This document shows, piece after piece, positions 1 to 58,637 of a stretch of 64,000 nt of DNA. The stretch spans positions 29,700 through 93,699 of the IMG/VR virus record IMGVR_UViG_3300042893_000474; one strand, written 5' to 3'. Numbering within the stretch: the first letter of the stretch is position 1; the number at the start of each line of letters is the position of its first letter. Under the pieces are notes generated by a model. That model had not been told where the DNA came from, made no database searches, and was given only the letters and a program-made list of their open reading frames with translations. The stretch is from a virus. Both the position numbers and the translations under genes were made by a program.

Positions 1-2343
1 CATCATCACTCAAATATTATAGATAACTCTAGATACGTAGCGTCAGAGCATAATAAATCTCTACCTACTGACATAGATGATAGTAGAACGACAAGAGCAT
101 ACTATGGTTCTGTAAAAGTCTATAGACCAAACCAATATGGTCCATTAACAAATTTACGCTACCTCTCTACTGGATACTCAGTAGACATAAACATCAATCC
201 TAATAACGGGTTAGGTCAAATGCAAGAAACATACTATCCTGCATTTGGAGGAGATACATTTATCAATGCCTTTGCTTTAAAACGTAAGCATGCATTTTTC
301 CGTCAAAACTTAGCAGGTAAGCCAGATGATATCCCATTTAACTATTACTTGTTTCCTAACTTAGGATACCCTAGTCACTTTTATGGATACAATGCTGCCG
401 CTCAAGACATAGAAGCAGTTCTAAAAGACCAGTTGGACGACTTTCTTATTTGGGCATTAGTAGCAGCTGGTCTTGCAGGAGCCGCAGCTATATTTGGAGA
501 TGGTATTGCTGTAGGAGAAATAGCATTTGCTGCTTTAACTACAGGGTTTAAGTTAGCTACTTTAAATGTAGTATCCGACTTATTGGCTTCTACTAAACCT
601 TATGTATTTTTAGATCAAGATGAAACATTTGCAAACACTTGGTTAAGTATTGGAGTAGGTGGAACATACTTCTATTATAAGGGTATGATTTATTTATTCT
701 CTTACGGTCTTCCTATTTTCTTTGTTGAGTCTGACGTAAACGTAGATTTCCGTCATGGAAGAAATGACAAAGAAGAAAATTTCTATGGGGCTAAAGAACT
801 TGGAGAAGTTCCTGACGCATGGTTGCAAGAAGTAAACGTACCTATCAAGTACGATAACTTCTATTTTTATAACTCTACTTACTCCGCTCAAAATGTAATT
901 AACCCTAATTTCCCTTACAATGAAAATTACCCAGAACTTTATTGCGAAACTGACCTATACAATAGAGTAGTGTATTCAGATGCAGCAGGTAGATATGGTA
1001 AAGGGGATCCTTGGTTAAACTTTAGAAGAGGTAACTTCTACGACTTTCCTAAAACTCATGGTAGGTTAATAGCTTTAAATGGAGTAGAGAATGGAAAAGT
1101 ATATGCTCGTTTTGAAAACAACACTAAAGTCTACAATGCTATAATCACACTAGACAGTAACAATCCAATTGCTATGGAGATTGGAGATGCTAGTATGTTT
1201 AAACAAAAGCCTATTGAGATGTCTACTGCAGACATTGGATATTTAGGTACACAGCATAAAGCTTTTATAAAGACAACGCATGGTGGATTCTGGGTAGACG
1301 CTCGTAGAGGACATGTGTACCAAGTAACTAGTGGGGGTATTGATGAGATTTCTTTAAAAGGTTCTATGCAGTGGTTTAAAGAACATCTTCCATTTAAGAT
1401 TCTTAAAGACTTCCCTGACTTTCCAGTAGATAACAACTACAAAGGAATTGGTATTACTATGGGTTGGGATGAACGTTTCCATAGAATGTTCTTAACTAAA
1501 CTTGATTATCGGGTAAAAGAACAATACAGAGGATTAGTTACCTATGAAAATAAAAGGTTCTTCTACAATGATACTGAAATTGAGTTTGCTGATTTAACTT
1601 ATTTTGAGAATCACTCATACACAATTTCTTATAGTGTGTTATTGAAATCTTGGATTTCTTTCCACTCTTTCTTACCTAACGCTTATGTCTCTTTTATTGA
1701 TCACTTTCAGACAGTAACACAGACAGGCACTTGGAATCATAACTTATCTCCTCTTACTTATCAGACTTACTATAATCGTTTTTACCCTTATGTTATTGAG
1801 TATGCTGTAAACAATGCTCCCAATACTCATATGGTAAACTCAGTTACTTATAATCAAGATATTCATAAGTACTATAATAGAAACGATTACTATTCACTAG
1901 GCTCTTACAATGATAAGAACACACCTAACTTTACTAAAGCTATAGTTTATAACAAAGAGCAGACTTCAGGATTAGTTAACTTAATTGCACAGATTCCGAA
2001 TGATGCTCGTCAACGTTTGTTATACCCAAGGGTAAGTAGATTTGGAACAGAAGTTCTTTTGACTAAAAAAGATCTTAAGAATAACTTTAATGGATTCTGG
2101 GATGCTACTAATAACAAAGAAAATTTCCAAACTTTATTCAGTACTAAATGGGAAGATTTAAGTGCAGACTACCCTATTGATAAAGTAGTAAATCCAAAAG
2201 CTGTTATAACTACAACTAGACTTTCAGGCAAACAAAAGATTCGTTCTACGTTCTGTAAGATTAGACTTATTCAAGATAAGTTTAATCGTTATAAGTTCAT
2301 TAACAACTTACAATTAACCCAAACCACAAACTCCATAACATGA
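1..2343 (+). CDS. crAss-like tail stabilization / muzzle protein (5'-truncated by window)
   Basis: Frame 1 is open from base 1 (HHHSNII...YRPNQYG...) into the 220..2343 ORF. NQYG...GGDTFI, beta-propeller-like G-T-Q-H/FWVD/SWISFHSF motifs and the position just before the cargo genes fit crAss-like stabilization proteins. Confidence 0.75.
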   Translation, partial: HHHSNIIDNSRYVASEHNKSLPTDIDDSRTTRAYYGSVKVYRPNQYGPLTNLRYLSTGYSVDININPNNGLGQMQETYYPAFGGDTFINAFALKRKHAFFRQNLAGKPDDIPFNYYLFPNLGYPSHFYGYNAAAQDIEAVLKDQLDDFLIWALVAAGLAGAAAIFGDGIAVGEIAFAALTTGFKLATLNVVSDLLASTKPYVFLDQDETFANTWLSIGVGGTYFYYKGMIYLFSYGLPIFFVESDVNVDFRHGRNDKEENFYGAKELGEVPDAWLQEVNVPIKYDNFYFYNSTYSAQNVINPNFPYNENYPELYCETDLYNRVVYSDAAGRYGKGDPWLNFRRGNFYDFPKTHGRLIALNGVENGKVYARFENNTKVYNAIITLDSNNPIAMEIGDASMFKQKPIEMSTADIGYLGTQHKAFIKTTHGGFWVDARRGHVYQVTSGGIDEISLKGSMQWFKEHLPFKILKDFPDFPVDNNYKGIGITMGWDERFHRMFLTKLDYRVKEQYRGLVTYENKRFFYNDTEIEFADLTYFENHSYTISYSVLLKSWISFHSFLPNAYVSFIDHFQTVTQTGTWNHNLSPLTYQTYYNRFYPYVIEYAVNNAPNTHMVNSVTYNQDIHKYYNRNDYYSLGSYNDKNTPNFTKAIVYNKEQTSGLVNLIAQIPNDARQRLLYPRVSRFGTEVLLTKKDLKNNFNGFWDATNNKENFQTLFSTKWEDLSADYPIDKVVNPKAVITTTRLSGKQKIRSTFCKIRLIQDKFNRYKFINNLQLTQTTNSIT

Positions 2344-2717
2344 CACCAGAAGTAATTAGCTCAGTAAAACCCGAAGTGGTTTTAGGGCAGATGTTCCAGT
2401 CTAGAGATATGATGCACATTGCACATTTTCAAACTACATCTTACGCACAGCACACTACCTTACAAAAGTATTACGAAGGAATTCTAGAACTTGCAGACGA
2501 GATAACAGAAGTATACTTTGGTTGTCTAGGAAAAAGGTTAAACTTTAAAATCCCTTCTGCTGATTATATGAATCCTGAGACACACTTAAAGCAGTTTAAG
2601 GAGTACATAAAAAAGCATAGAACTGTTTTTGGTTCTGATAGAACAGATGTACAAAATCTTATAGATGAGTTAATCGCTTTAATCAATAAGACATTATATT
2701 TGCTTAGCTTAACTTAA
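2340..2717 (+). CDS. ferritin/Dps-like four-helix protein (DUF5856-like)
   Basis: H-x-x-H-F-Q-T-x-S-Y-A-Q-H...YY...D...E pattern and C-terminal 'N(L)IDE...NKTLYLLSL'; ATGA overlap with the upstream gene. Confidence 0.7.
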   Translation: MTPEVISSVKPEVVLGQMFQSRDMMHIAHFQTTSYAQHTTLQKYYEGILELADEITEVYFGCLGKRLNFKIPSADYMNPETHLKQFKEYIKKHRTVFGSDRTDVQNLIDELIALINKTLYLLSLT

Positions 2718-2728
2718 TTATTAGTATT

Positions 2729-2971
2729 ATGAATAACTCTAGTCTAAAAGATATGTACTATGCCAAAAAAGGTATGGTAATGAAAAAAGGCGGTAAGTGG
2801 ATACAAAAAGCTGTTTCTAAAAATCCAGGTTCTTTTACTGCACAAGCTAAACGTGCTGGTATGACTACAAGTGCATTCAGAGAAAAAGTATTATCTAATA
2901 AAGAAAAGTTTTCATCAACTACAGTAAAGAGAGCTAACCTAGCTAAAACTTTATCTAAAATGAAAAAGTAA
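2729..2971 (+). CDS. small basic internal virion protein
   Basis: 80 aa, Lys-rich. Contains the KWIQKA...PGSFTAQAK...KRANLAKTL module seen in phage cargo proteins, preceded by YAKKG/MKKGG motifs. Confidence 0.6.
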   Translation: MNNSSLKDMYYAKKGMVMKKGGKWIQKAVSKNPGSFTAQAKRAGMTTSAFREKVLSNKEKFSSTTVKRANLAKTLSKMKK

Positions 2972-4206
2972 TGAAGTCATCTCTATTTGAACACTACAAA
3001 AAAAAGTATGCTATAGGAGGTAAAACTCCCGTACGTAAAACTGGTATGTGGTATCAGAATGGTGACGTAGTTGTTCCTTCTAGTGAGATTACCATGAAGG
3101 GTCCTAACGGAGAAAAGGATTATTTTGATTCTCCTATAATGGGTATTGGTATGCTTTCAGGAGACACTCAAGTAATGCAGCCTGGACAAGACTATTCATT
3201 CCCCAATGACAATGCAGTTTATGAAAAGAAAATGCAAATAGGAGCTAAAGTAAAGAATGAAAACATGACTCCTGAACAGCAAGCACGTTTTAATTCTTAC
3301 CTAAAAAGTTCAGATTCCAGAAATATAAAAACTCCTGAATGGTTAGAATTATCTTCAGGTGCTACTAACTATGCTCGTAGATTAAATCGGATGAGTCAAC
3401 AAGAACTCATAGGTATGCCTGGTGATATTTCTCAAAATGTAAATAATGCTTTTAGACAAGGTATTGATTACTCTCTTAATGTTCCCACAAGTGCAGGTCA
3501 ATTTAGTACCGAAGGTTCTTATAACCCATTTGGCGAGAACACAGTACAAGACATGTATAGTGGATTAACCTACACAAAAAACTTACCAAAAGGTTCTATT
3601 AGAATTAGTCCTGAAGAACAAAAGTTAACTTATAGAGGAAAAAAAGGAAACGTAAGTTATAAGAAAAAGATGTCTGACGAAGAACAAATATCTGAACTAG
3701 CTTTTAACTTAAATTTTTTACCAGAAAGTCTTAGCATTTATGGAGGAGGCAAAACATCTAACGGTCTTCTTTCTGCCACAGGTAAGGATCCTAAATTTCA
3801 AGTAAACGATAACTACAATATCAACGCAGGTGTTCGAGGCGATATAGGTCCTTTGTCTTATGATGTAAGTGGTAACTATAATCCTGAAACAGGTTATCGT
3901 TATAATGCAGATGCACAGTTATCTCTACTTAAAGATAGATTACAGTTATCAGGTAATGTCGAAGGAAGTCAAGAACTAGGGTTAGAGTCTATATCTGCAG
4001 AAGCAAGAGCTAAAATATTAAAGAACTTAAATGTAAAAGCTGGCTACAGACAAAGTGGCAATAACCCAAGTTCTTATAATATTGGTTTAAGTTACAACAA
4101 AGCTTTTGGACAAGGAGGTATGTCCATACCAGGAGTTAATGGAAGTGTTATAGCTTCTGCACCAATGACTTTACAGAAGCAGTATAAAAATAAAAATAAG
4201 AAATGA
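2971..4206 (+). CDS. modular internal virion (cargo) protein with C-terminal beta-barrel-like domain
   Basis: YAIGG/MQIGA/FGQGG delimiters; N-terminal small domain (SEITMKG...MQPGQDYSFP); aa 164-379 show alternating amphipathic strands ending YNIGLSYNKAF. Confidence 0.55.
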   Translation: MKSSLFEHYKKKYAIGGKTPVRKTGMWYQNGDVVVPSSEITMKGPNGEKDYFDSPIMGIGMLSGDTQVMQPGQDYSFPNDNAVYEKKMQIGAKVKNENMTPEQQARFNSYLKSSDSRNIKTPEWLELSSGATNYARRLNRMSQQELIGMPGDISQNVNNAFRQGIDYSLNVPTSAGQFSTEGSYNPFGENTVQDMYSGLTYTKNLPKGSIRISPEEQKLTYRGKKGNVSYKKKMSDEEQISELAFNLNFLPESLSIYGGGKTSNGLLSATGKDPKFQVNDNYNINAGVRGDIGPLSYDVSGNYNPETGYRYNADAQLSLLKDRLQLSGNVEGSQELGLESISAEARAKILKNLNVKAGYRQSGNNPSSYNIGLSYNKAFGQGGMSIPGVNGSVIASAPMTLQKQYKNKNKK

Positions 4207-5852
4207 AAAAACAGATGATAAAACGGGCTGATGGTTCATATTCACAAAGAGGTCTTTGGGATAACATCCGTGCAAATCGTGGTAGTGGTAAGAAACCTAC
4301 TGCTCAGATGCTTAAACAAGAACGTAAGATTAAATCTAACATGGCTGAGGGAGGTGTAAACAATCCTGGATTCCAAGCATTGCCAGGATACGTTCAAGCT
4401 AAAATTAGAGCTAATATGCAAGAGGGAGGAATGACAGGTTCCCCTATTGTAGATATGATTAATAATCAATCTCAGATGCCTATGATGCAAATGGGAGGAA
4501 ATATGCCTCAAACTAGTGCAGGTCGTTCTGTACTTCAAGAAGCTATGGCAATGAGTACAATGCAGATGGGAGGTAAAATGCCTGCTGATATTGCACGTGC
4601 TCGTTTTATGGCTGCTGCTAATGGTGATGCCTCTAAAGCAAAAGAAACTGCTTCTAAGTATGGATACAAAATGCAAAATGGTGCTTTGAACTTAATGGGA
4701 GTTCCTAACATGAATGCAGGCACACCAGGGTTTGATTTTGCAAAAGCTTCTGCATATGCCACTGCACCTAAAGAAGAAGTTCCTACTGATATAGAGAGAA
4801 TGCAAGCTGTAGACATTAAAAAGAAACGTTCTTTTATGGATAGAGTAAAAGGCAATGTAAGAAGGGCAGGAAGAGCTGTTGGATTAGGTAGCCCTGTTCC
4901 TAAGACAGACTCTCAGCAAGTAATGGATGAAGTGATTGGTCAAGTTAGAGCAGACGAACAAGCACGTATAAAATCTAACGCACCTACTACTGCCGAGACA
5001 AGTAGAACTGCATTTAATAAAATTAAATCTGGCGATGTGTCAATGAAAAATATAGGTGACTATATGGAAGGTTTTGGTACTTATTTAAATGCAAGTAGCG
5101 ACAGAAATGTAGTAACTGATTTATTTGATATTACGGCAACAGGAGCAGCAGCAGTTGGTGCTGGTAATGCAGCAAATAATATTCTACAAACTAAACAAGC
5201 TGCACAACTAGCAATGCAATCTCCTGTTGGTAAAGCATTAGATTTAGTAAACCCACTTAGTATTGGAGCTAATTTAGTTTCAGGTACTGCAGATGCAATG
5301 GGAGAATTATCTGAAGGTAATTATGGAGAAGCTACTGGAGTTGCTGCTAAGACAGCAGCACTTGCTGCTTTAAAAGGTAAAGCAGGAAATGTATCTAAAA
5401 ATGCCCTAGGCAGAACAGCTAGTGCTATAAATAGAACTAAAGTAGGAAGTGCTGCAAGTAACGCTATTGGTTCTGCTACTAGACATGGAGTAGGACATCA
5501 ACTTGAGCATGCAGGACAACACATGTTACTCTCTCCTCTCCTAGCACATAAGAATGGAGGTACTATCCAAGATATGTACTATATGAAGAAGGGTGGACAG
5601 TTCCCAGACCGTTATAAGAAGATGGGATTTAGCGGAGTAGACAAACCTAAAAGAACTACAAGCGGAGGTAAGAGTCATGCAGTAGTTACTAAGGTTGATG
5701 GCAATTATAAATTAATTCGTTTTGGTCAAGCAGGTGTAACAGGAGATAGAACTAATACTAAGCGAGCAGCATCTTTTAAATCACGTCACGCAAAGAATAT
5801 AGCTAAAGGTAAATCTTCAGCTGCATACTGGGCTAATAAAGTAAAATGGTAA
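4203..5852 (+). CDS. modular internal virion (cargo) protein
   Basis: Seven M/H-x-x-G-G/A motifs separate short modules; Ala/Gly-rich central helices; basic C-terminal domain (LIRFGQ...SFKSRH...SAAYWANKVKW). Confidence 0.6.
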   Translation: MKKQMIKRADGSYSQRGLWDNIRANRGSGKKPTAQMLKQERKIKSNMAEGGVNNPGFQALPGYVQAKIRANMQEGGMTGSPIVDMINNQSQMPMMQMGGNMPQTSAGRSVLQEAMAMSTMQMGGKMPADIARARFMAAANGDASKAKETASKYGYKMQNGALNLMGVPNMNAGTPGFDFAKASAYATAPKEEVPTDIERMQAVDIKKKRSFMDRVKGNVRRAGRAVGLGSPVPKTDSQQVMDEVIGQVRADEQARIKSNAPTTAETSRTAFNKIKSGDVSMKNIGDYMEGFGTYLNASSDRNVVTDLFDITATGAAAVGAGNAANNILQTKQAAQLAMQSPVGKALDLVNPLSIGANLVSGTADAMGELSEGNYGEATGVAAKTAALAALKGKAGNVSKNALGRTASAINRTKVGSAASNAIGSATRHGVGHQLEHAGQHMLLSPLLAHKNGGTIQDMYYMKKGGQFPDRYKKMGFSGVDKPKRTTSGGKSHAVVTKVDGNYKLIRFGQAGVTGDRTNTKRAASFKSRHAKNIAKGKSSAAYWANKVKW

Positions 5853-5853
5853 T

Positions 5854-6006
5854 ATGGCAACTAAAAAAACAACCAAAGTAGTTTCTAACTCTGCTTCATT
5901 TAAAGAGAAGTCTAAAGTTAGTCGCCCTGGAGTTCATGCTAAAACTAAATCTTCTAAGTTAAAGCAGAGTAAGAACTATCAGAAAGCTTCGAGGGGTCAA
6001 GGTTAG
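5854..6006 (+). CDS. 50-aa highly basic protein (missed by ORF track)
   Basis: ATG 1 nt after the upstream stop; translates MATKKTTKVVSNSASFKEKSKVSRPGVHAKTKSSKLKQSKNYQKASRGQG*. The RPG.H.K...KNY.K..RGQG ending is typical of small basic phage proteins. Confidence 0.75.
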   Translation: MATKKTTKVVSNSASFKEKSKVSRPGVHAKTKSSKLKQSKNYQKASRGQG

Positions 6007-6013
6007 TATACTC

Positions 6014-6043
6014 TTGATTTTTATTGTTAATAGAGTATATTTG
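6014..6043 (+). promoter_or_regulatory. Bacteroidota sigma-70-type promoter
   Basis: TTG (6014-6016), 19-nt spacer, TATATTTG (6036-6043), in the intergenic gap upstream of 6105. Confidence 0.75.
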
Positions 6044-6104
6044 TATTTAAACTTTTTAAGTGCAAGTATATTTAACTTACAAAGTTAATTAATATTTAAA
6101 GTTA

Positions 6105-9098
6105 ATGAATACTGGAAAAAATAGAGTTAAAGGATTAAAGACTGAGCTTTTTAAGAAAAAGTATCAGACTAACCCTGTAGTAAATAACCCAACGAATCAG
6201 TTAGAGGGTAGGACTTTGTCAGACATGGTTACTGACAAAACTAAAGAATTTGAAGAAAAGTTAGCAACTCAACAAGCATACTTTAGTAGATACCCTTTAA
6301 AAATAAACAGTCCTAAGAAATATACTCCAGAAGAAATTAAGGCAATGCGTGAAGCATTTCCAATGTCTTCAGATGATTTTCAAACAGCTAATAGTTATGG
6401 GATTACAGGAATTCCTGATTTAATGCAAGGGCAAGATGTTAACGATATTCGTACTCAAGATCAGATATTAGGACAAACTGAACTCCTCACTTCTACTCCA
6501 AAGTCACTCCAAAATTTCCAAGACCCTAACTTCAATGAAAGAGTAAAGGCAGCCTCAGAAGAATCTCTTAACGCTAAACCTAGTTCTGATAGTAATTGGA
6601 AAGATATGTTTCGTGATACTGATTGGAGAAATGTAATTCGCACAGGTACAGGGCTTGTTTCTGCTACAAAAGGAATTTATGATGATGTCCAAACAAGAGG
6701 AGACATAAACCAACGTATTCAAAATTTAAATGACCGTCCTCGTTATATGCCTAACGAATATGAGTATATGGGAAGACCAGGAAGCCAGAGTGTAATTTAT
6801 GCTAAAGATGGTGCTATGATTCGTAGAGGCACAGAGTCAGGTGCAGAGGAAGCAGAGCTAGAACGTGGTGAAATGTTTATGTTGCCTAACATGGATAGTT
6901 ATGTAGTAGGAGGAAAGAAGCACTCACAAGGTGGAGAAGACTTTGTTTTGCCTGAAGGCACTATTGTATTCTCTGACCACTTAAAAGTTCCAGGATTAAA
7001 AAATACTTTTGCACAAGAAGCAAAAAAGTTTGATATAACTAAATACAAGGATACCCTTGAGAATCCCCATAGCAAGTCTGTAGATAGAACTACTGCTGAG
7101 GTTATGATGGATAGGAATATGAAAAAGCTCCAAGAGTTATTTCAGATTCAACAAGGTATTAATGGTGACTCTAATGGAGAGATGGAAGCTGAAGGTATTA
7201 AAAAAGGACAAAAAGGTTTAGTTAGTGTAGGATCCGTAGTTGCAGCAAACCAACCTCAAACTGCTTCTATGGCTCTCACTCCTGAGCAACAAAAAGAATA
7301 CTATCATAATCAAGGGATGTTTGATAACCCTAGCTATACATATGAAAATCGAGTAAAAAAAGCTTTTCCTGAAAAGTTTTCAAGTTGGAAAGAACAAGAC
7401 TTGAGTATTGTAGCAGATGAGGCTGATGCATTAACTAAACAGATACAAGATAGAGTTCAAGCTGCAGAAAATAATAGAGTAGCAGCACAAGCAAACCCTA
7501 ATCCCTCTGGTACTTTAGGAGCAAACCCAGTAACAGTAGCAAATAGTGCAACCGAACAAGTTAATAAAACGGCTGACCCTAGTGCTGCAGGAACTGTAAC
7601 CAATTCAAATGCAACAGATCCTTCTTCAATGCATTACAAAACTTTACCTAATGGTAAAAAAGTATTTGTAGAAGGTCAAGGAGAATTTAAAGGAAAAAGT
7701 TATAGAGACCAGTACGGAGGAGATGTATTTAACTTAGTTAGAAACAGATTAAATGAATACGGAGAAACTTTAAACCCTACTCTTTTATCTGCTTACCAAC
7801 TACAGATTAAGGATAAGAATTTAATGGTAAAAGACTCTAACCAACTTGTAGATATTATGGAATCAGGAAACCATTCTTTAGATTCTATGAGACAATTCTA
7901 CAAAGGTATTGGCATGGAGGATGCTTTGTTTAATCCTGAGTTAGACAGATCTAAAGATGGTAATGAAAGTCAAAAGAAAACAGCTCAATTATTTGCAGAC
8001 TATGTTAAAAGTCCTCAGTACCTAGCGGATGTTAAAGCAGGTAAAGCGTCTCCTTATATTCCTTGGTTAAAGACTCAACCAAAAGAAGTTAAAAATGCTA
8101 AAGGAGAAGTAACAGGATATACTTTAGACGCTCCTGAGATGAGTCAGGAGTTTACTCAAAAATATCAAGCAGCTTACAAAGCTTTTGGGGCAGTTAAACA
8201 AACACAGAAAGGAAAGTCCACAGACATGCTGAAAGGTTTTAGGATTGCTCCTGAAGGACTTTCGGATCACATGTGGATGGGACTTCCTATATCTCCTGTA
8301 GATGAATGGGGAGGTAATACAACAATTGGGCAGATTAGTGCTTTTGAAGATGAAGAACCTAAAAAACCTACAAAACCTCCAGGAACTCCAGTAAAAACTA
8401 CTGATAATGGAAATACTTATAATACTCAATTAGAAAATGCTACTATGGGTAAGTATACTCCTGAAGGATTTGATTATCCTCAGTTAGCTCCAGAGATTTA
8501 TGGAGCAGCGGCTAGTCAAATGTTTGCTTATGCTCCTATGGATTACAATGCTCCATATGTAATGCCTCAGACTTTGAATATTCAACCTCAACTTCAAGAT
8601 GTAGATAGTTCATATATGGCTGCACTTAATGCAGGGGCTGATCCTAACAGTGCATTGATTGCTACGTTAGGTGCTAAACAAAAACTATACTCAGAGAAAC
8701 AAAACTTTGACGGACAACAAAGAGCACAAGTTGATCAAATAAATGCAAGTGCTAGGTGGCAAGAGGATGTTCAGGATATGCAGTCTTTAGACAAAGTATA
8801 CAATACTTTGATTGCAGGTGCTGACGATGCTGTTACAGCACAACGCCAAGCCCTAGTAAAATCTGCATCTGATAAACGTGCAGTTTGGAAAATGGAAGAA
8901 GCTAGAAAACAATTCTGGTATAACAATTTTGTTAAGAGCTTTGACTATGACCCTAAGACACGTTCTATGACTGTTAAAAAAGATGCAAGTAAAGAATTTG
9001 TTAATCAACTTAGTGCAGCTTACGGCAATGATTTTTCAATTCCAGAAGTAGATGAAACCGCCACTGCTACTTCAAATACTACAACAATAAATAATTAA
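6105..9098 (+). CDS. crAss-like cargo/ejection protein
   Basis: 997 aa, no Cys; E-x-E-x-G-E...G-x-x-H-x-x-G-G...VFSD-x-LK motif; position directly upstream of the giant-protein triplet. Confidence 0.6.
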   Translation: MNTGKNRVKGLKTELFKKKYQTNPVVNNPTNQLEGRTLSDMVTDKTKEFEEKLATQQAYFSRYPLKINSPKKYTPEEIKAMREAFPMSSDDFQTANSYGITGIPDLMQGQDVNDIRTQDQILGQTELLTSTPKSLQNFQDPNFNERVKAASEESLNAKPSSDSNWKDMFRDTDWRNVIRTGTGLVSATKGIYDDVQTRGDINQRIQNLNDRPRYMPNEYEYMGRPGSQSVIYAKDGAMIRRGTESGAEEAELERGEMFMLPNMDSYVVGGKKHSQGGEDFVLPEGTIVFSDHLKVPGLKNTFAQEAKKFDITKYKDTLENPHSKSVDRTTAEVMMDRNMKKLQELFQIQQGINGDSNGEMEAEGIKKGQKGLVSVGSVVAANQPQTASMALTPEQQKEYYHNQGMFDNPSYTYENRVKKAFPEKFSSWKEQDLSIVADEADALTKQIQDRVQAAENNRVAAQANPNPSGTLGANPVTVANSATEQVNKTADPSAAGTVTNSNATDPSSMHYKTLPNGKKVFVEGQGEFKGKSYRDQYGGDVFNLVRNRLNEYGETLNPTLLSAYQLQIKDKNLMVKDSNQLVDIMESGNHSLDSMRQFYKGIGMEDALFNPELDRSKDGNESQKKTAQLFADYVKSPQYLADVKAGKASPYIPWLKTQPKEVKNAKGEVTGYTLDAPEMSQEFTQKYQAAYKAFGAVKQTQKGKSTDMLKGFRIAPEGLSDHMWMGLPISPVDEWGGNTTIGQISAFEDEEPKKPTKPPGTPVKTTDNGNTYNTQLENATMGKYTPEGFDYPQLAPEIYGAAASQMFAYAPMDYNAPYVMPQTLNIQPQLQDVDSSYMAALNAGADPNSALIATLGAKQKLYSEKQNFDGQQRAQVDQINASARWQEDVQDMQSLDKVYNTLIAGADDAVTAQRQALVKSASDKRAVWKMEEARKQFWYNNFVKSFDYDPKTRSMTVKKDASKEFVNQLSAAYGNDFSIPEVDETATATSNTTTINN

Positions 9099-9101
9099 AC
9101 T

Positions 9102-17755: not shown

Positions 17756-20700
17756 ATGAACGCCTGTAGTATAAAAGGAACTTCCTACGAAAAAGAGTAC
17801 AGACAGATTTTGTCTGAACCTGCTATGATATTTGTTTGGAATGCAAACAATGAACAACCTTTAGATAAAAAGAAAGTAGGAAATGAGGTAATAGAAAATC
17901 CTCTTTATACTGCTCTACTAAATCACCCAGTAACAAAAGGAGAAAGACAGAATGCACTTAAGTTAGTAGCACAAAGTTTTTTACCTGCATTCACTAGAGA
18001 GTATACTCCTAACGAAGAAGGAGACTACTCTTTAGAACAAGTGGTAAGTTATGTAGAGAAGAGACAGAAACAAGCACAAGATCAAAGAGAGCAGCTAAAG
18101 TCAAGTATTAACTTGCCAACTAGCATGGCAATTAATATTCCAGATGGTGTTATTAATGAAACTGCTCGCCAAATATTCTTTTCAGAAGAACAGGGACAAG
18201 ACATCTATGACACACTTCAGTATTTACTAGGAGTAAAAAAGTCATGGGATGGTGTGTACAGTGAGTTAGTAAATCAACGTAATACTATTTTAGGTAGAGT
18301 AAAAGCAGGACAACACTTTTCTGAAGACCCTGAGAGATTAGCATACAATGAAATCCTTGTACAAAACTTTGATAAGATTAAGTCTTGGTACGATTCTAAA
18401 GAAGGTTTAGTAGGAGAAGCAGAACTTGAGAGTCAGTTTGGAGATTCTGAAGATTGGAAGTCAAAAGATAAATCACAAGCTCAAAGGGCTTCTTCTATTA
18501 TATTAGGATTAGTTACTTCATTACCTGCATACCGTACTGCTATCCCAGGAGAAATAGATTTTGAAACAGGCGAAGAATATCAACAAGTTACACAAGTTCA
18601 AGTTCAATCAACTGTAACAGGACTACCTAAGTCAGGAGACTTCCAAAAGAACTGGAGTTTACTAGGAAGTACATTGTCAGGTATGACTAATTATTCGGAC
18701 ATGTATGAGGCTATTGAAGGTTTATCTAGTAGATATCCTCAGTTTGCTTACTTGTTGAGTAAGATACCGAATGCTAAAATCCCTGGAAGTTTTAAGGATG
18801 TTAGACAATTCTTATTGGCTAGTGAATTTAAAAGAGTATTTAGTGTACCTGAAGTTTCTTCTGTAGTAGTAGACGTTACATTAAAAGAAAACGGTAAGAT
18901 TGCTACAACACAGCAACTAAAAGGATTTCAACCTGTTAGAAATGCAGTAGCTCTTTATGATTCTCAGTACTTTAGTTATAATCAAAAATATTTAGTAAAG
19001 GGTTTAGAAGGAAACGAAGTAAATCTAGAAGGAATTATAGAAGACTTTCAAGGTTTATTTAACGACTTAGGAAGTGCTTTGACTAAGAAAGTTCCTATGC
19101 AGAACTTTTTATTCCCTGCTCGTCTAGATAAGTTTGTACAGTTTTTACAATCAGTTGGACTAGGGCTTAACAATCAAGAGTATCTTAAAAGTACCAACAT
19201 TAATGGGACTAAGGAATTTATCCAAGCAAACTTAGATAAGTTAAAAACTATTTACGAGAAGTTAAAGATTGTTAGCATTGCAAATGAGTATTTAACTGAT
19301 GATGCTAAAATAAAAGTAGATAGACCTCTTTCATTTCTTAGAGATACCATCCAAGAGATTTATGTATCTAAAGGTAAAGTAAGACCTGACGTAGAGGCAG
19401 CATTAGAACAAGCTTTTGCAGATAACAAGTTGCGTTATAAAGGAGGTGTTAAACAAGCTATTGGATACTTGGGAATTAAGAAAACTGAAATTAGTCCTTT
19501 TATTAACTTCTTTACTCAATACGATGCTGAGTTTAGGCCAAGTTCTTATATGAACGCAGCAGACAAGAAAAAGTTTGTAAGAGGCCCATGGTTTTATTTA
19601 ACTCAACAAACAAATGTAATTAACTCAGTAAGCAGTTACGATGAGTTAATCAACATACCAGGTTTTGAAAGATTTGATTATCGTAAGAATCCAGATATTC
19701 TTGGATCACTTTGGTTACAAAGAATGTTTGGGTTACCTAGAACTAAGAATGCTATAGAAGCAAACCCTCTAGGTACTTATGTACGGAAGAAAGATACGTT
19801 AGGTAATCCTATAGAACTTAACATAGCCAATTTTGATGGTATGGAGATTAAAAACTTTGGAGCTAAGTCAGGTAAAACAACTACTGACCAGCATCCAAAT
19901 GATAAAATCTTCCAAGACTTTGCTAGTTTTTTCCAATCTCTTGAGATGGAAAATATTCGTTTTGGTGACAAGACAGCTGCATTTACAGTTCGTGCTTCTA
20001 ATCCAATTCTTTCTGAAAAGATATACGTGGCTTTAAATGCTGCGGAACTTATTACTCCTACGGAAAGATTAGAATCAGAAAAAAGTTTAACCGAGTTATT
20101 CAATGGTTACTTAGCTTCAGAAGCAACAAGAATCATAAAGCTGATAGAAGAAAAAGGTAGAGGTACAACGTATGACAGATTGGGTAAGAATCTCTTTATC
20201 TTTAATGACATTCTTCCTGAAGATACATTAAATAAATTCAAAGACGCTAAAACTAGAGAAGAAGTAATTGCAGCCTACACAGAGGCTACATCAATGATGT
20301 CTACTGTTTTACAAGAGTACTTCTCACAAGAGTCTCAGAAGTTAGTAGACAAGCTAGTAGATACCTTTAGTACTTCTGTAAATATTACAACAGGACAAGA
20401 GGTAACTCAAGCCCAAAGATTAAAACAAACTGTAGAGAAGTTAAATAAACTTAATCTTATAAGTACACAGTTACTGCCTAGTGAGGTTAGAGATAATCCT
20501 CCAAAGATTACAGTAGAAAACTTGCCTTATTTAGCTGAAATCTATTTGAAGAACGGCTTTGTACATAACGTTGAGTTCTTAAAAATGTTTGTTGGGGATT
20601 TATCAAATTTTGATAAAACTAATTTAGACGCTCGTGAGATATTCAAACGTATTCCTTTTACTTCTTCTCCTGGTAATGTGTTCTTTTGGGATGAAGCAGC

Positions 20701-23700
20701 TCAAGAGTTCTTTGATAATGATACAAACCAAGATGCATTAAGTATTGCTTATACAGGAGTTGCTAATAAGTTTAGTCCAATTCTTAAAACAGTTGTCTAT
20801 AATGATGTAAATACTTTTAGTTCTGAGTCTTATCAGGAGTACAAAGAAGCTTATGATAGTGACGATAGTTGGGATGCTTTAACTGAGGACGAGAAGTCAG
20901 AATTTTCTGAATACGCTAATAAACCAAAAGAAGCAGATGCTCAAGGAGTAATTACCCTAGACTCTTACCGTAACTATCTACTAGGAATCAATCGCTGGAG
21001 TTCAGAACAAGAACAGGCATATAACAGACAAGTAAGACTAGTAAAAATTAATCAGGAGTTAAATAACAATCCAACAAATGCAGAAGAATTATACAAAGAG
21101 AAGAATGAGATTGTTGAGAATTTTGGTTCTGCCTTATTCCCTCCTCTTAAGTTAGGTCACTACGGAGCTATTGTAGAAGACCCTAAGTTAATAGCATTAC
21201 ATAAGTTCTCATTGATTCCTTTGATTCCTAGCGCAATAGAAGGTAAAGCTTTAGAAAAGCAACTTGAGTTAATGTATAGGAACAAAATCAATTACTATAC
21301 ATTCAAGTCAGGTTCTAAGATGGCTCAGTATGGAGAGTCTATTGATTTCTACAAAGAAGTAACTAACGAACAAGGAGAGAAAGTACTTGTAGTAAATGAC
21401 GCACTAGGAGAAAATAATGTTACATCTATCCACCTTCAGAACTTAAGAGAGCAGCAGTATCAAGCCCCTAAGTTTAAAACTCAAGCTACACTTGCTACTC
21501 AGATGATGAAGTTGGTGTTTGGGGACTTCTTTGAGAATGGAGAAATATCTTCTGACTTTAGTGAAGGTACACAAAGACAAATTGAATCCTTGTATGATTC
21601 ATTTAAAAACAATATTAACGACCTAATTACTTTTGAAACAATTAAACTAGAAAGAAAGTTAGGAATTAGACGTAATGCAGCTAAAGAAATTATAGAAGTA
21701 GATCAGTTGCAGATGGCAAGATTTTTTGCCGAGGAGTTAGAAAATAAAGAAGCTCCTGAAGCATTACGTAGATTCATTCAAGTAAACGAAGATGGTACAT
21801 TTAAGTATCCTCTAGATGCAATCAACAACAGAAATCAATTAGAAAGTCTTGTACTAAATGTAATCAACAATAAAGTTATTTCTCAGAAAATCAATGGGGA
21901 GAGTTACATTCAGGTAGCAGGTACAGGGTTTGAGACTAAGCGATATGTTAAACCAACAGCTGAACAGTTAAAAGAGTTTGGTGCTAACGATCTTCAATTC
22001 TATACAAGAGACCCTATTACGGGGGAAACTTTACCTATGGAAGTTAAAGTAGGATTCAATGTTAAAAAACATGGAGGCTTACTTAAGTTAGAGTATGGTA
22101 AAGGGAAAGTAGAAACTTTAAAACAGTTAAATAAAATCCTAGGATCTAAAGCTCCTTTAGATATTGCTTGGAAAAAGAAGCACATGGATAAGTTAACTAT
22201 GGTAGGAGTTCGTATTCCTGTGCAAGGTTTCTCTCAAATGGAATATGCAACCATTAAAGAGTTCTTACCAGAATCTGCTGGAGCAATCATGGTTCTTCCT
22301 GCGCAGATTGTAGTTAAGTCAGGAGGAGATTATGATATTGATAAGTTGACTTTCTTTGAAACATCGTACGATAATAAGGGTGAGGTTTATAAAAAATCAT
22401 TCAACTTAAAAGATTACGAAGCCAAGTTAGAAAAGCAAAAAGAGTTAAAGAAAACTAGACAAGAGCTTATAACTTTAAGTGAGTTACTTGAGAAAGAAAT
22501 TGCTGATAACGATATCTTTAGAGAAAGAGAATCTCTTAAGAAAGAAATCAATGAAATTAAAAAAGAGATATTAAATGCTAAAGCAGCAGTAGAAGATTTC
22601 TTAGATAGTGGATTTTTAACAAAAGAAGATGCTAGCTGGGCAAGAGAAGCTGCCTCTGATAAAGAAGATTTACAAAGAGCTTTTGCTGACTTAGATAGTT
22701 TTGATACTGCAAACGATGTTCGTGTATTACAGACTGTATCTTTAATTAAAAGTAAACTTAGAGAGATCAGCAAAGAAGTAGAAAGTATAGATGCCTACAA
22801 AAAGAGTTTAAGTAATAACTTAGTAGGCATTCTTAAGGGAGTATTGATGCAAGGAGAATTATACAATGCATTGATTACTCCAAATACAAACAGTGTTTTA
22901 ACTCAGTATACACCTCCAGGAGAGAAGATAAGCACTACAGCTGTGTTTAGTCCTTTAACTTCTTGGAGAATCTATATGGAGAACATTCTTTCTAAAGATG
23001 CATTAGGAATCGATGCTAAGATAAATACGCTTCAGAAAGAATTCCAAAGAGCAGGATTGAAGATTACAGGTAGTCTACTAAAGAAGTATTACTTTGAGTC
23101 TAACAAAGACAAACAAGGAAATATAATTTTAGGAGGCAAGAAAGATGCACGGGGGGAAAACCGTATTTCTAAAGTATTGAGTGAGTTCATTAACGGACAC
23201 GTAGACATTGCTAAAGAAGACTGGATTATTTTATTAGGATTAGACCAAGAAACTAGTCCATTGGCACACGCAATGATTCTTACAGGAACTCCTGTAGAAC
23301 AAGTGTTAGGTTTAATTAACTCTCCTATTATTAAAACAGTTCTTCAGTTAGGTAATAGACCAGAGATTCAAAAGAAACTAGATAATATTAGACCTAATAA
23401 AAAGAAAGCGATTCTTGGTTTAATTAAAAACAAACTTACTAAAGTTACAGACCCTGAGGTTAAAGCATTAATTGATGCTGCTCAGTTAGCTATTAGTGGG
23501 TTGAAAGTAAAGTCTACAAATGGTATTACGGATACTTTTGTAAACAACCTACTAGTAAATCCTATATTCAACAAACATATAAGCAACTTTAAACCTACAG
23601 AAAGTTTAAGTGAGGAAGAGTCTGCTATAAGAGATTTAGCATATTTGATGCAATTCTATGTAGTAGTAAGGCAGCAGGAAAGTTTGAGAGAGTTAACTTC

Positions 23701-25816
23701 TATGAGTGACTTTAACACTACTAGTTATAGAACTTCGTTCCAGTCTGAAGAATTATTAACAGCTGGTAGCAAACTAAAGAATAACTTTAATGAAGAAGCT
23801 ATCGACTTTATGTTTAAAGAGTCTGCTTTAGCTCAGTTTAATGTAGGTAGTCTTGTTCAAGAAACTATGAGACAGATTTATCCTCTATCAGATTCTAAAG
23901 AAGTCCATTCAGATATTTATACCTTTATGGAGAGAAAAGGATTGTTCAAAGAAGAGGAAAAAATGCAAGCCATTCAAGGGTACAAGAACAATCTACTAGT
24001 TCCCTATGTTCTACTAAACGCCCAAACGCCAGAGAAAGGAAACTTACTAGAGTACTACAGAGGCAAGAAAGGAATATTTGTAAGAACAACTGCTAATAAT
24101 ATGGAAGAAAGATTCCAAAGATTATTACAGAATCCAGAAATGAGGAACAACTTTGTCATGACTAACATCTATATAGACATAGAGAACTCAGGCAGAGAGA
24201 TTGAGTTTAAACTAAAGAACACTGATGTAGACGAGAACAGTAAGAGTTATAGACTTGCTTTCTTAGAAGGTTTAAATAGTCCTAATCCAGAAGTTAAAAG
24301 TTTCTTTGAAGACTTAGGTATGGGTTCGTACTTACAGTATGCAGGTTCATATGCATCTGGCCATGTATCTACTATTGTGCCTCATGAAGTTTATGTAAGC
24401 CATACTACAAATGCTTTCAACAAACTAACCGAACTTAAAGATACTGATAGTGCTAAGTTTGATGCTTACTTAAGTTTAGTTAGATTCTCTACTAAAATGG
24501 CTCTTGAGACTGCGGGACCTATTAAAGGGTTAAGTACATTCTTTGTAAGTAACTATGCTGAGATGGCTAAGACTATTACTGGATTAAGCCCAGAAGTACT
24601 TAAGCTATATAAGAACAGAGAAAACCTCACCTCAGGTAAAGTAGAGTCTCTTCAGCAATCTCCATCTACTAGTGTTGAAGTAATTCCTCTAAATGAATCA
24701 CAAAGATTTACTAGAGAATCAGCTGAAAAAGATACAGAGTATATGTATTTATTTACAGATAATGCTGGTAGAACATCAGGCTCAGGAGTTATTGATCCTA
24801 ACAGTTGGTATGCTAAAAAATATGGTGCAGATAAAAAATATGCAAGTAAAACACAAGCTGTAGCAAGAGGTCTTAAAAATGTTTATCCTATTACTACAAT
24901 GGTAGATGATAAGAGAACTCAATGGACAGATGACCAGTTTAATGAATACAAGAAAATTATTGATGATGAAATAGAAACTATTAAACAGGCATCTAAGAAG
25001 TATAATGGTATTAAGTTTGGTGCAGAAATGCCTTTTGGTAAAGGTGCTATTTCTAATATGAAAGACAGTGCTCCTAAAATATGGAATTATCTTAATACAA
25101 AACTTGCTGAAATAGGTATTGATAATACAGGAGATATACCTGTATCTACTCAACCATCTACTAGTGTTAATCTTTTAGTAGAAGCAGGAGTTAAGCCTAC
25201 TGATATGGCAGGTAATGCTGCTAAAGATATACAGATGGCTTCTGAGTCTACTCAGTTTATTGGATTCCAATCAGGAACTGCAACTGTGAGTTCTACCAAC
25301 AAATACAAAGAAGCTTGGGGAGATAAAGCAAACACAGGAAATTATACTGCGGACGATGTAGTAATGGTTTCAGGTAGTGGTTTATTTAGGGGAGTTACTG
25401 AAGCTCAGATAAAAGAAACTTTAACTAATAAATACAAACCTTTGTTAGAACAGGCTATTGCAGCTGGTGCTTCTTTTAGAGTGGGTAATCAATATGCTAA
25501 AGGAAATCTTTCTGATCAGTTAATTGCTCAGTATCTAAAAACTAAAGGATACCAAGAGGAGAAATTTAATGGGTATTCTAAATGGACTCCTAAAGTTACT
25601 GAAACAAGTCAAGAGATTCAAAAAGAAGTTATAGAAAACTTTGAAGAAGATTCTGATGTTACGGATACCAATGTGCCAAATACTCCGACACAGTTTCCTC
25701 CAACCAAAACAGATGATATTCAACTTACCTTAAAGTTAGACCCTGATCAGAAAGATGATGATAAAGGGAACTTAGATGACTTAGGGTTTGAAGAAGATAC
25801 CTGTGAGATAGTTTAA
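17756..25816 (+). CDS. virion-packaged single-chain double-psi-barrel RNA polymerase (crAss-like)
   Basis: 2686 aa; RIPVQ...LP...GGDYDIDKL catalytic DxDxD (22328-22342); EADAQG, PPLK...HKFS, VDIAKE motifs; middle gene of the giant triplet as in crAss-like phages. Confidence 0.9.
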   Translation: MNACSIKGTSYEKEYRQILSEPAMIFVWNANNEQPLDKKKVGNEVIENPLYTALLNHPVTKGERQNALKLVAQSFLPAFTREYTPNEEGDYSLEQVVSYVEKRQKQAQDQREQLKSSINLPTSMAINIPDGVINETARQIFFSEEQGQDIYDTLQYLLGVKKSWDGVYSELVNQRNTILGRVKAGQHFSEDPERLAYNEILVQNFDKIKSWYDSKEGLVGEAELESQFGDSEDWKSKDKSQAQRASSIILGLVTSLPAYRTAIPGEIDFETGEEYQQVTQVQVQSTVTGLPKSGDFQKNWSLLGSTLSGMTNYSDMYEAIEGLSSRYPQFAYLLSKIPNAKIPGSFKDVRQFLLASEFKRVFSVPEVSSVVVDVTLKENGKIATTQQLKGFQPVRNAVALYDSQYFSYNQKYLVKGLEGNEVNLEGIIEDFQGLFNDLGSALTKKVPMQNFLFPARLDKFVQFLQSVGLGLNNQEYLKSTNINGTKEFIQANLDKLKTIYEKLKIVSIANEYLTDDAKIKVDRPLSFLRDTIQEIYVSKGKVRPDVEAALEQAFADNKLRYKGGVKQAIGYLGIKKTEISPFINFFTQYDAEFRPSSYMNAADKKKFVRGPWFYLTQQTNVINSVSSYDELINIPGFERFDYRKNPDILGSLWLQRMFGLPRTKNAIEANPLGTYVRKKDTLGNPIELNIANFDGMEIKNFGAKSGKTTTDQHPNDKIFQDFASFFQSLEMENIRFGDKTAAFTVRASNPILSEKIYVALNAAELITPTERLESEKSLTELFNGYLASEATRIIKLIEEKGRGTTYDRLGKNLFIFNDILPEDTLNKFKDAKTREEVIAAYTEATSMMSTVLQEYFSQESQKLVDKLVDTFSTSVNITTGQEVTQAQRLKQTVEKLNKLNLISTQLLPSEVRDNPPKITVENLPYLAEIYLKNGFVHNVEFLKMFVGDLSNFDKTNLDAREIFKRIPFTSSPGNVFFWDEAAQEFFDNDTNQDALSIAYTGVANKFSPILKTVVYNDVNTFSSESYQEYKEAYDSDDSWDALTEDEKSEFSEYANKPKEADAQGVITLDSYRNYLLGINRWSSEQEQAYNRQVRLVKINQELNNNPTNAEELYKEKNEIVENFGSALFPPLKLGHYGAIVEDPKLIALHKFSLIPLIPSAIEGKALEKQLELMYRNKINYYTFKSGSKMAQYGESIDFYKEVTNEQGEKVLVVNDALGENNVTSIHLQNLREQQYQAPKFKTQATLATQMMKLVFGDFFENGEISSDFSEGTQRQIESLYDSFKNNINDLITFETIKLERKLGIRRNAAKEIIEVDQLQMARFFAEELENKEAPEALRRFIQVNEDGTFKYPLDAINNRNQLESLVLNVINNKVISQKINGESYIQVAGTGFETKRYVKPTAEQLKEFGANDLQFYTRDPITGETLPMEVKVGFNVKKHGGLLKLEYGKGKVETLKQLNKILGSKAPLDIAWKKKHMDKLTMVGVRIPVQGFSQMEYATIKEFLPESAGAIMVLPAQIVVKSGGDYDIDKLTFFETSYDNKGEVYKKSFNLKDYEAKLEKQKELKKTRQELITLSELLEKEIADNDIFRERESLKKEINEIKKEILNAKAAVEDFLDSGFLTKEDASWAREAASDKEDLQRAFADLDSFDTANDVRVLQTVSLIKSKLREISKEVESIDAYKKSLSNNLVGILKGVLMQGELYNALITPNTNSVLTQYTPPGEKISTTAVFSPLTSWRIYMENILSKDALGIDAKINTLQKEFQRAGLKITGSLLKKYYFESNKDKQGNIILGGKKDARGENRISKVLSEFINGHVDIAKEDWIILLGLDQETSPLAHAMILTGTPVEQVLGLINSPIIKTVLQLGNRPEIQKKLDNIRPNKKKAILGLIKNKLTKVTDPEVKALIDAAQLAISGLKVKSTNGITDTFVNNLLVNPIFNKHISNFKPTESLSEEESAIRDLAYLMQFYVVVRQQESLRELTSMSDFNTTSYRTSFQSEELLTAGSKLKNNFNEEAIDFMFKESALAQFNVGSLVQETMRQIYPLSDSKEVHSDIYTFMERKGLFKEEEKMQAIQGYKNNLLVPYVLLNAQTPEKGNLLEYYRGKKGIFVRTTANNMEERFQRLLQNPEMRNNFVMTNIYIDIENSGREIEFKLKNTDVDENSKSYRLAFLEGLNSPNPEVKSFFEDLGMGSYLQYAGSYASGHVSTIVPHEVYVSHTTNAFNKLTELKDTDSAKFDAYLSLVRFSTKMALETAGPIKGLSTFFVSNYAEMAKTITGLSPEVLKLYKNRENLTSGKVESLQQSPSTSVEVIPLNESQRFTRESAEKDTEYMYLFTDNAGRTSGSGVIDPNSWYAKKYGADKKYASKTQAVARGLKNVYPITTMVDDKRTQWTDDQFNEYKKIIDDEIETIKQASKKYNGIKFGAEMPFGKGAISNMKDSAPKIWNYLNTKLAEIGIDNTGDIPVSTQPSTSVNLLVEAGVKPTDMAGNAAKDIQMASESTQFIGFQSGTATVSSTNKYKEAWGDKANTGNYTADDVVMVSGSGLFRGVTEAQIKETLTNKYKPLLEQAIAAGASFRVGNQYAKGNLSDQLIAQYLKTKGYQEEKFNGYSKWTPKVTETSQEIQKEVIENFEEDSDVTDTNVPNTPTQFPPTKTDDIQLTLKLDPDQKDDDKGNLDDLGFEEDTCEIV
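24662..25168 (+). repeat. 15-bp direct repeat CCATCTACTAGTGTT (PSTSV) flanking an in-frame 164-codon domain
   Basis: Exact copies at 24662-24676 and 25154-25168, 492 bp apart. Confidence 0.85.
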
Positions 25817-58399: not shown

Positions 58400-58637
58400 T
58401 GTTAGTTAGTTGTTTTAGATGAAGCTTTTTCTTTAGCGGGGTATCAAAATTAGGGATGTGTTCTGAAATTTGCAAGTCATTTTTTGCATTATTATCCCCC
58501 TCATTCCAATCTACTAAAGATTCTTCATAGGCTCTTTTTGCCAAGAGAAAATCTGGACTTGTATCCAGACTCTCTCCATAGCAATTAAACGATAAATTAT
58601 TCACAGCCTTCATTAGGTATGTTCCAAGTGCTTTCAC
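58329..58637 (-). CDS. hypothetical protein
   Basis: Fills the gap between neighbours; the start may be the ATG at 58613. Confidence 0.5.
   Translation of the reverse strand: MKALGTYLMKAVNNLSFNCYGESLDTSPDFLLAKRAYEESLVDWNEGDNNAKNDLQISEHIPNFDTPLKKKLHLKQLTNNEKDILRDNVEPVGETGNPTKMV

Follow-up and report, generated by a model that had tools for sequence, protein, structure and literature searches.

An outer-membrane-protein-like beta module in a candidate virion cargo protein of a marine crAss-like phage

We analysed a 64,000-nucleotide stretch of viral DNA (the window; positions 29,700 to 93,699 of IMG/VR virus record IMGVR_UViG_3300042893_000474) and found that its gene P0001 encodes a modular protein of 411 amino acids (aa), in which a small N-terminal beta domain (the N-module) is followed by a linker, a module of two-faced beta strands and a basic tail. 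The beta module is predicted to fold as a long meander whose structural neighbours are membrane beta-barrels, and the gene lies where crAss-like phages encode virion cargo. The 93.7-kb parent record is crAss-like by the relations of its downstream RNA polymerase (RNAP) and upstream muzzle genes, and its source is an uncultured, marine crAss-like phage. We suggest, at about even chances, that P0001 is an internal cargo or ejection protein of the virion whose beta module, once refolded into the outer membrane of the host, makes up or anchors a channel's outer end. The conserved N-module would dock the protein in the particle or the ejection train, and the chain would be extruded largely unfolded through the tail. 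The beta module (aa 125/165-379) would then refold in the host outer membrane as a sheet or barrel like that of outer-membrane proteins (OMPs), where it would insert, close or oligomerise, and so form or anchor the outer-membrane end of a trans-envelope channel with the function of a pore.

A preliminary description of this DNA had read aa 164-379 as consecutive amphipathic strands. We found that the mean beta hydrophobic moment of this region was 0.402, compared with 0.249 +/- 0.028 for 2000 shuffled sequences (z 5.4), and none of the shuffles reached it. The same test detected no two-residue periodicity in the N-terminal 163 residues, which hold the N-module and the helical linker. Conservation of the strand faces and of single residues was followed in an alignment of 41 relatives. 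At the 'out' parity of the predicted strands 85% of the cells were hydrophobic, aromatic or glycine, compared with 18% at the 'in' parity, and charged residues made up 5% and 28%, respectively. In the last seven strands the 'out' parity was hydrophobic, aromatic or glycine in near 100% of cells; the strands of the N-terminal half (aa 165-263) were predicted too, with a weaker hydrophobic face. The strand ends are rich in conserved tyrosines. Y297, Y303, Y311, Y359, Y375 and F379 were invariant in the 41 relatives, and G382 and G383 nearly so. Relatives with as little as about 40% identity still keep the dyad pattern, the glycine and tyrosine positions and the turns, position by position, which indicates that a specific fold is under selection. 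The alternation of hydrophobic and polar residues and the aromatic girdles of OMPs are both found in this pattern.

The amphipathic strands of the preliminary description are thus confirmed, by the comparison with shuffles and by a face pattern kept across the relatives. The peptides that it quoted for positions 3460-4119 (aa 164-383) are all present: NINAGVRG (aa 283-290), LSYDVSGNY (295-303), YRYNADAQL (309-317), LQLSGNV (324-330), ISAEARA (341-347), LNVKAGYR (353-360) and YNIGLSYNKAF (369-379), all in the C-terminal half of the module (aa 283-379), and the junction FGQGG (379-383).

AlphaFold2, run with the family alignment, returned a beta N-domain at aa 27-86, a helical linker and an uninterrupted up-and-down meander. 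The meander consists of a short strand S0 (aa 125-129, LELSS) and 15 strands between aa 165 and 375, each of 5-14 residues. When the domain at aa 119-383 was predicted alone, the predicted local distance difference test (pLDDT) was 85 and the predicted template-modelling score 0.65. Three of the five domain models agreed with each other at pLDDT about 85; the alignment behind them was shallow, with about 45-46 rows of fairly similar sequences. Tight turns (2-4 residues) join the strands on one side of the sheet and longer loops, the largest of 12 and 18 aa, join them on the other, and the count of 16 strands, read from the predicted secondary structure, places both termini on the tight-turn side, as in OMPs. 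The predicted meander runs from each strand to its next neighbour and has an even number of strands (at least eight), again as in OMPs. L125 and L127 in S0 were hydrophobic in all the aligned relatives. In the linker the alpha moment exceeded the beta moment and helices were predicted at aa 130-162, and the tail had a pLDDT below 50.

We then compared the model with 48,161 representative chains using VIA-align, a tool whose own note states that unmatched models typically reach a best Z of 7-8. A Z of at least 8 was obtained for 109 chains. The best 50 in each of three lists (Z 10-13) were all membrane beta-barrels or engineered forms of them, and they came from bacteria, mitochondria and chloroplasts. 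Foldseek against the PDB placed porins at the top (E 1.3e-5), followed by AlgE, VDAC and Tom40, and 45 of the 45 matches listed were membrane beta-barrels or engineered forms. Because both tools return these neighbours, we assign the fold class to the membrane barrels. General porins aligned with the model at VIA-align Z 12.6-13, with a root-mean-square deviation (rmsd) of 12-13 Å and about 10% identity. P0001 resembles the 16-strand porins (Rhodobacter blastica 1PRN, Vibrio OmpU/OmpT) in strand number, topology, dyad pattern, aromatic strand ends and the asymmetry of turns and loops. Unlike the porins, it has no signal peptide, constriction loop, C-terminal final phenylalanine or Pfam membership.

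The lowest rmsd values were obtained with the PapC usher (7LHG; 5.3 Å over 221 residues), SusC (5T3R; 5.5 Å over 169) and a Chlamydomonas TOC-complex chain (7XZJ/7VCF; 5.4 Å over 171), and matches to these three fell at 5.3-6.3 Å over 169-221 residues. These fits cover parts of wide (22-24-strand) or partial barrels, show no sequence relation, and suggest that the sheet curvature of the modelled P0001 module is similar to theirs. Unlike P0001, the three proteins are made by the cell and inserted by its machinery. A reading as a TamB, LptD or 'beta-taco' protein was also considered, from a weak TamB match in the relative P0040 and the name 'LptD' given to P0065 by the JGI. We found no beta-taco or jellyroll lipid-transfer chain in the structural lists, an absence that is not proof; LptD (8h1r) did appear at VIA-align rank 36 (Z 11.3), matched through its 26-strand barrel region.

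The signals that guide a host-made OMP were looked for in the same protein. The N-terminus (MKSSLFEHYKKKYAIGGK...) has no hydrophobic core and so no Sec signal peptide, as the preliminary description had stated: within the first 40 aa the highest Kyte-Doolittle value of a 10-residue window was 0.14. No 19-residue window anywhere in the protein reached 1.6, and P0001 has no helical membrane segment. The likeness of YNIGLSYNKAF to the beta-signal of BAM, the machinery for beta-barrel assembly, survives in part. Y369, I371, L373 and Y375 do alternate, but K377 at the -2 position breaks the pattern, the predicted strand stops at Y375, and F379 lies outside the last strand and inside the chain, followed by 32 residues here and about 100 in many relatives. 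A terminal aromatic residue would arise only if the chain were cut at FGQGG, as the preliminary description envisaged.

Sequence searches placed P0001 in a family of its own. It gave no match in PHROGs, Pfam, NCBIfam or PDB sequence searches, and nothing was found with the whole protein by tblastn against 50,697 phage records or with the region by megablast. Its relatives number about 70, all metagenomic and none in a named family. Matches to OMP families were sub-threshold and confined to few relatives (OMP_b-brl, E 0.0036; Porin_4, E 0.024), and PF24653 Phage_OMP had no match at E <= 10 across the 93.7-kb record or in the Pfam scan. In the ESM Atlas the beta module gave weak leads only, to porins and to IAT_beta (score 0.85). 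Phage proteins in BFVD that carry the name 'autotransporter beta-domain' matched at E 3e-3, with an rmsd of 24-29 Å to the model. Exhaustive phmmer and domain-only profile searches recovered the phage family alone and no bacterial relatives, and on these searches we rejected a recognisable captured host porin.

The genomic position of P0001 was compared in seven further viral loci. The genes ran in the order muzzle, DUF5856 protein, 80-aa protein, N-module protein, a protein beginning 'MKKQMIKR...', proteins of about 1000 and about 570 aa, and the giant proteins, and a full-length muzzle gene (1650-2000 aa) lay ahead of the slot in all loci. The exceptions were L005, which has no 80-aa gene, L011, where the order is shifted and additional small genes are present, and L014, in which the muzzle gene is directly followed by the N-module protein with no DUF5856 gene between. 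P0001 thus sits between muzzle and virion RNAP genes, the position of cargo proteins. Both flanking identities rest on tblastn. The muzzle-like open reading frame (ORF), which also matches phrog_37948 (E 6e-66), is related to a structural protein of Cellulophaga phage phi4:1 verified by mass spectrometry (MS; E 1e-40) and to MS-verified structural proteins of Flavobacterium phages, and the RNAP-related ORF matches crAss-like proteins annotated 'RNAP catalytic subunit' with E down to 1e-16. PDB sequence searches with both ORFs found nothing. None of the six ORFs in 2340-10814 (five cargo-block proteins and the DUF5856 protein) has a helical transmembrane segment, which makes the beta module the sole membrane-type element among them.

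The N-module ties P0001 to a wider set of proteins. By a BLASTP map it is 55-80% identical among proteins of 200-1600 aa whose remainders differ, and it stands at the N-terminus of proteins with LysM and SLT transglycosylase domains or ART-PolyVal domains. The combination of SLT and LysM is that of a cell-wall cutter, as in T7 gp16. AlphaFold2 predicted the strands at aa 27-86 with a pLDDT of about 80. Among the 50,697 phage records its sole match was a weak one by tblastn, to the N-terminus of gp040 of phages phi4:1 and phi17:2. Foldseek in BFVD independently recovered the relation, and hhalign aligned the N-module with aa 1-87 of phi4:1 gp040 at a probability of 93% (E 3.2e-7); the ESM Atlas returned nothing for it. 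Gp040 is annotated as a virion structural protein from MS/MS of virions. The N-module is probably a virion-docking or ejection-targeting domain. Virion delivery, as proposed in the preliminary description, is therefore partly supported: P0001 has no signal peptide, occupies the cargo slot after the muzzle and carries an N-module homologous to that of the MS-verified gp040.

In most relatives that occupy the same slot the beta module is kept at 45-87% identity, while its size varies from 3 to about 22 strands. Counted by eye, P0038, P0041 and P0065 have about 12 strands compared with 16 in P0001, P0032 and P0033 have four more, and P0029, P0035 and P0084 have six more. Gains of four and six suggest that the variants add whole hairpins. 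The smallest module is in P0037 (277 aa, on a 59,854-bp contig), which keeps the last three strands, the tail and DUF5872 and has lost S0-S12. Both breakpoints fall within peptides that resemble each other, LELSS (aa 125-129) and LESIS (aa 338-342, in P0001 numbering), and the deletion joins PEG-LQSLSAEARA.

Other slot variants carry no beta module of the P0001 type; in its stead L011 and L012 have hydrophobic segments rich in glycine, and L012 has a long beta meander of another kind. The 674-aa variant at L011:8974-10998 combines the N-module with an HExxH motif (TIHEGTHDW, aa about 519-527), and its Gly-rich hydrophobic segments lie at aa about 95-150; it has neither beta module nor GGMSIPG tail and may be an ejected metallopeptidase. 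The variant at L012:9001-11838 (945 aa) has Gly-zipper-like hydrophobic segments and an internal GGMSIPGVNG at aa about 388, after which follow a different Gly/Asn/Tyr-rich meander of ~350 aa and a C-terminal DUF5872, an arrangement that looks like a fusion of two slot proteins. Across loci, then, the protein in this slot is a patchwork.

Table 1. Features of P0001 and of its flanking genes (window coordinates)
Feature	Position	Strand	Basis
Whole gene P0001, modular cargo-slot protein, 411 aa, no signal peptide	2971..4206	+	ORF list, translation
N-module, aa 1-95 (core 17-95), small beta domain	2971..3255	+	BLASTP map, hhalign, AlphaFold2
Linker, aa 96-163, low-confidence, strand S0 and amphipathic helices	3256..3459	+	AlphaFold2, moments
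Beta module, aa 164-379, 15 predicted antiparallel strands (165-375) and NKAF end	3460..4107	+	AlphaFold2, VIA-align, Foldseek, periodicity
FGQGG junction, aa 379-383, hydrophobic-x-x-G-G module boundary	4105..4119	+	Conservation in relatives
Basic C-terminal tail, aa 382-411, GGMSIPGVNG...YKNKNKK	4114..4203	+	Recurrence at C-termini
Giant muzzle-like virion protein, C-terminal part	1..2343	+	PHROG and tblastn
Giant protein, 2686 aa, related to crAssphage virion RNAP subunit	17756..25816	+	tblastn

Several results weigh against a channel in the outer membrane. The outer-membrane-type barrel of the preliminary description keeps its long meander, its porin-first matches and its neighbours, which are membrane barrels only, but closure was not obtained: superposition on barrels of 16-19 strands was poor (10-15 Å), and the monomer model is probably an open arc, curved like a barrel of ~22-24 strands, as deduced from the rmsd and alignment tables rather than from coordinates. 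Two of the five AlphaFold2 models reached a pLDDT of only 64-67. No relation to an OMP family reached threshold in Pfam or in profile searches of P0001 and its relatives, and, with only three strands kept in P0037, a monomeric 16-strand conduit is unlikely to be indispensable. The N-module is only remotely linked to phi4:1 (E = 2 by tblastn alone), and from it we infer virion presence in the phage of P0001. A 16-strand sheet would also have to enter, from outside, a membrane covered with lipopolysaccharide; insertion assisted by BAM is speculative and would require the chain to reach the periplasm first.

In a rival reading the beta module is a soluble or protein-embedded sheet inside the particle, a plug, spacer or packing element that never enters a membrane. 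Its hydrophobic face would lie against the protein's own helices (aa 101-162), against other copies, or against tail or capsid proteins. The open-arc look of the model, the amphipathic helices directly upstream and a strand number that varies down to the three-strand remnant of P0037 are consistent with it, and in PhiCrAss001 segments of cargo are bound to the portal, the tail barrel and the muzzle (PMC10172136). However, no soluble fold was found among the best 50 neighbours in any VIA-align list. Membrane barrels typically show what is seen here, a single sheet of 16 strands of which one face is 85% hydrophobic and has almost no charge, and the asymmetry of tight turns and long loops and the Tyr-rich strand ends fit them as well. 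We consider such an embedded sheet unlikely, though not negligibly so.

The wide-barrel fits could also mean that the module is a partial barrel which makes a pore only by lateral strand pairing, either with its own copies or with a host barrel, for instance BamA, at its open seam. Pairing of copies would build a giant oligomeric barrel beneath the 6/12-fold tail; in the version with a host seam, the conserved Y375...F379 end would mimic a beta-signal. Wide barrels and the TOC-complex chain fit the model best in geometry, with a curvature of ~22-24 strands and not 16, and Y375 and F379 are invariant, with exactly the last strands retained in the three-strand variant. The TOC-complex chain is presumably itself a partial barrel that pairs with Toc75. 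Against this, the beta-signal match is partial and not C-terminal, and AlphaFold2 may simply fail to close a monomeric barrel given a shallow alignment of 46 rows. We judge the partial barrel quite improbable; if true, it would mean a hybrid giant beta-barrel that passes cargo proteins and DNA, a phage entry route with no described precedent.

That the slot is a patchwork in which modules come and go among close relatives raises the question of an accessory effector, a delivered OMP that permeabilises the envelope or excludes later phages and is not a conduit for DNA. Clear effectors, ART-PolyVal among them, are also fused to the N-module, and the P0037 deletion variant presumably comes from a viable phage. 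In contrast, the few copies delivered per infection seem insufficient to alter a whole envelope, the module is maintained in most relatives of the slot at the identities given above, and Pfam, the sole resource searched for this (no PADLOC search was made), gave no match to a known exclusion family. This makes an accessory effector very doubtful. Slimmer still is the chance that the region has no defined fold and is an aggregation-prone beta-rich stretch held extended in the particle, with an over-confident AlphaFold2 meander; the two low-confidence models, the high rmsd to every solved barrel and the ~45 similar sequences used as input would fit, but the position-by-position conservation of dyad pattern, glycines, tyrosines and turns to ~40% identity and the agreement of three models at pLDDT about 85 do not.

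An ejected, membrane-inserting cargo protein can be set beside known systems. PhiCrAss001 gp45 and gp46 (C1/C2) are virion cargo at the equivalent position and are expected to form a transmembrane channel after storage in the capsid or tail and extrusion in a partly unfolded state (Bayfield et al. 2023, PMC10172136). Like them, P0001 is encoded after the muzzle and before the RNAP giants and has no signal peptide. The predicted membrane element of gp45 is a single transmembrane helix, unlike the 16-strand beta meander of P0001, and PDB sequence searches gave no match between P0001 and gp45 or gp46, of which the solved structures hold fragments of gp45 only. In T7 (gp14), DEV (gp73) and N4 (gp52), small helical oligomers make the ejectosome's pore in the outer membrane; DEV gp73 assembles as a nonamer, and it has a transmembrane helix and a measured conductance (PMC8954989, PMC11445570, PMC13434306). 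The role proposed for P0001 is shared with these proteins, which are carried in the virion and ejected first and which open or line the outer membrane for DNA. Unlike the helical podophage pores, P0001 has an OMP-like beta module within a modular 411-aa protein and is known from its sequence alone. Phi4:1 gp040 (YP_008240628, 895 aa) shares the N-terminal N-module and a punctuation by F/Y-Q-x-G-G motifs, and it is encoded downstream of a muzzle-like homologue after one further tail-protein gene (gp041). It has no beta-barrel-like region, unlike P0001.

The ends of the modules follow patterns that extend beyond P0001. By the BLASTP map, many proteins that otherwise differ have the basic tail GGMSIPGVNG...YKKKKK at their extreme C-terminus. 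Close relatives have an acidic, helical insert of ~70 aa exactly between F379-x-x-GG and MQMGG-MSIPG, which indicates that FGQGG in P0001 is two junction motifs fused. Punctuation by hydrophobic-[QK]-x-G-G, seen in the small cargo proteins (window 2729-5852), is also found in phi4:1 gp040 (L015:8992-11679), as FQAGG, YQNGG, LKSGG, FQIGG, FQSGG and LKWGGKKR, and by this presence the punctuation predates the phage group of P0001. The tail (4171-4203, ..TLQKQYKNKNKK) resembles the N-terminus of P0001 itself (2971-3036, SLFEHYKKKYAIGG) and that of the upstream 80-aa protein (2729-2800, SLKDMYYAKKG..MKKGG), and the N-terminus of P0084 consists of the tail motif followed by MSNGG. Tail and next start look like one recurring linker at which genes fuse or split. 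A phage protease that might cut at GG was sought; the PHROG 'peptidase' ORF at 58597-59976 had no Pfam match.

Further observations concern the neighbouring genes. The DUF5856 protein (2340-2717, 125 aa; PHROG 858 'starvation-inducible regulator'), which we take to be ferritin/Dps-like, stands between muzzle and cargo in six of the seven further loci. In the next cargo-slot protein (4203-5852, 549 aa) the motif M-x-x-G-G occurs four times at a spacing of ~25 aa (aa 47, 72, 95, 120), and among its relatives of 300-704 aa the first 30 and last 25 residues are nearly constant. The C-terminal 700 aa of the muzzle-like protein (220-2343) have their best phage match in the cyanobacterial Leptolyngbya phage Lbo-JY46 (37% identity, E 5e-101) and also match the human-gut phage csAssE-Sib, an unexpectedly wide host range for this domain.

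Our literature searches turned up no ejection protein described as having a beta module like that of OMPs. OMPs need no energy to refold from the unfolded state into bilayers. Since a protein squeezed through a tail is unfolded, a module of this kind would suit ejection. At about 260 aa it is compact enough for standard refolding and bilayer assays, the G-G motif of gp040 makes cleavage testable by proteomics in the cultured phage phi4:1, and through the shared N-module ejected proteins could be found in Bacteroidota phages that are uncultured. How podophages cross the outer membrane has been worked out in detail only where the ejection proteins are helical, and the channel-forming cargo of crassviruses is still a guess. 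If our reading of P0001 is true, an OMP-like module carried by the particle would be a second structural solution for crossing the outer membrane.

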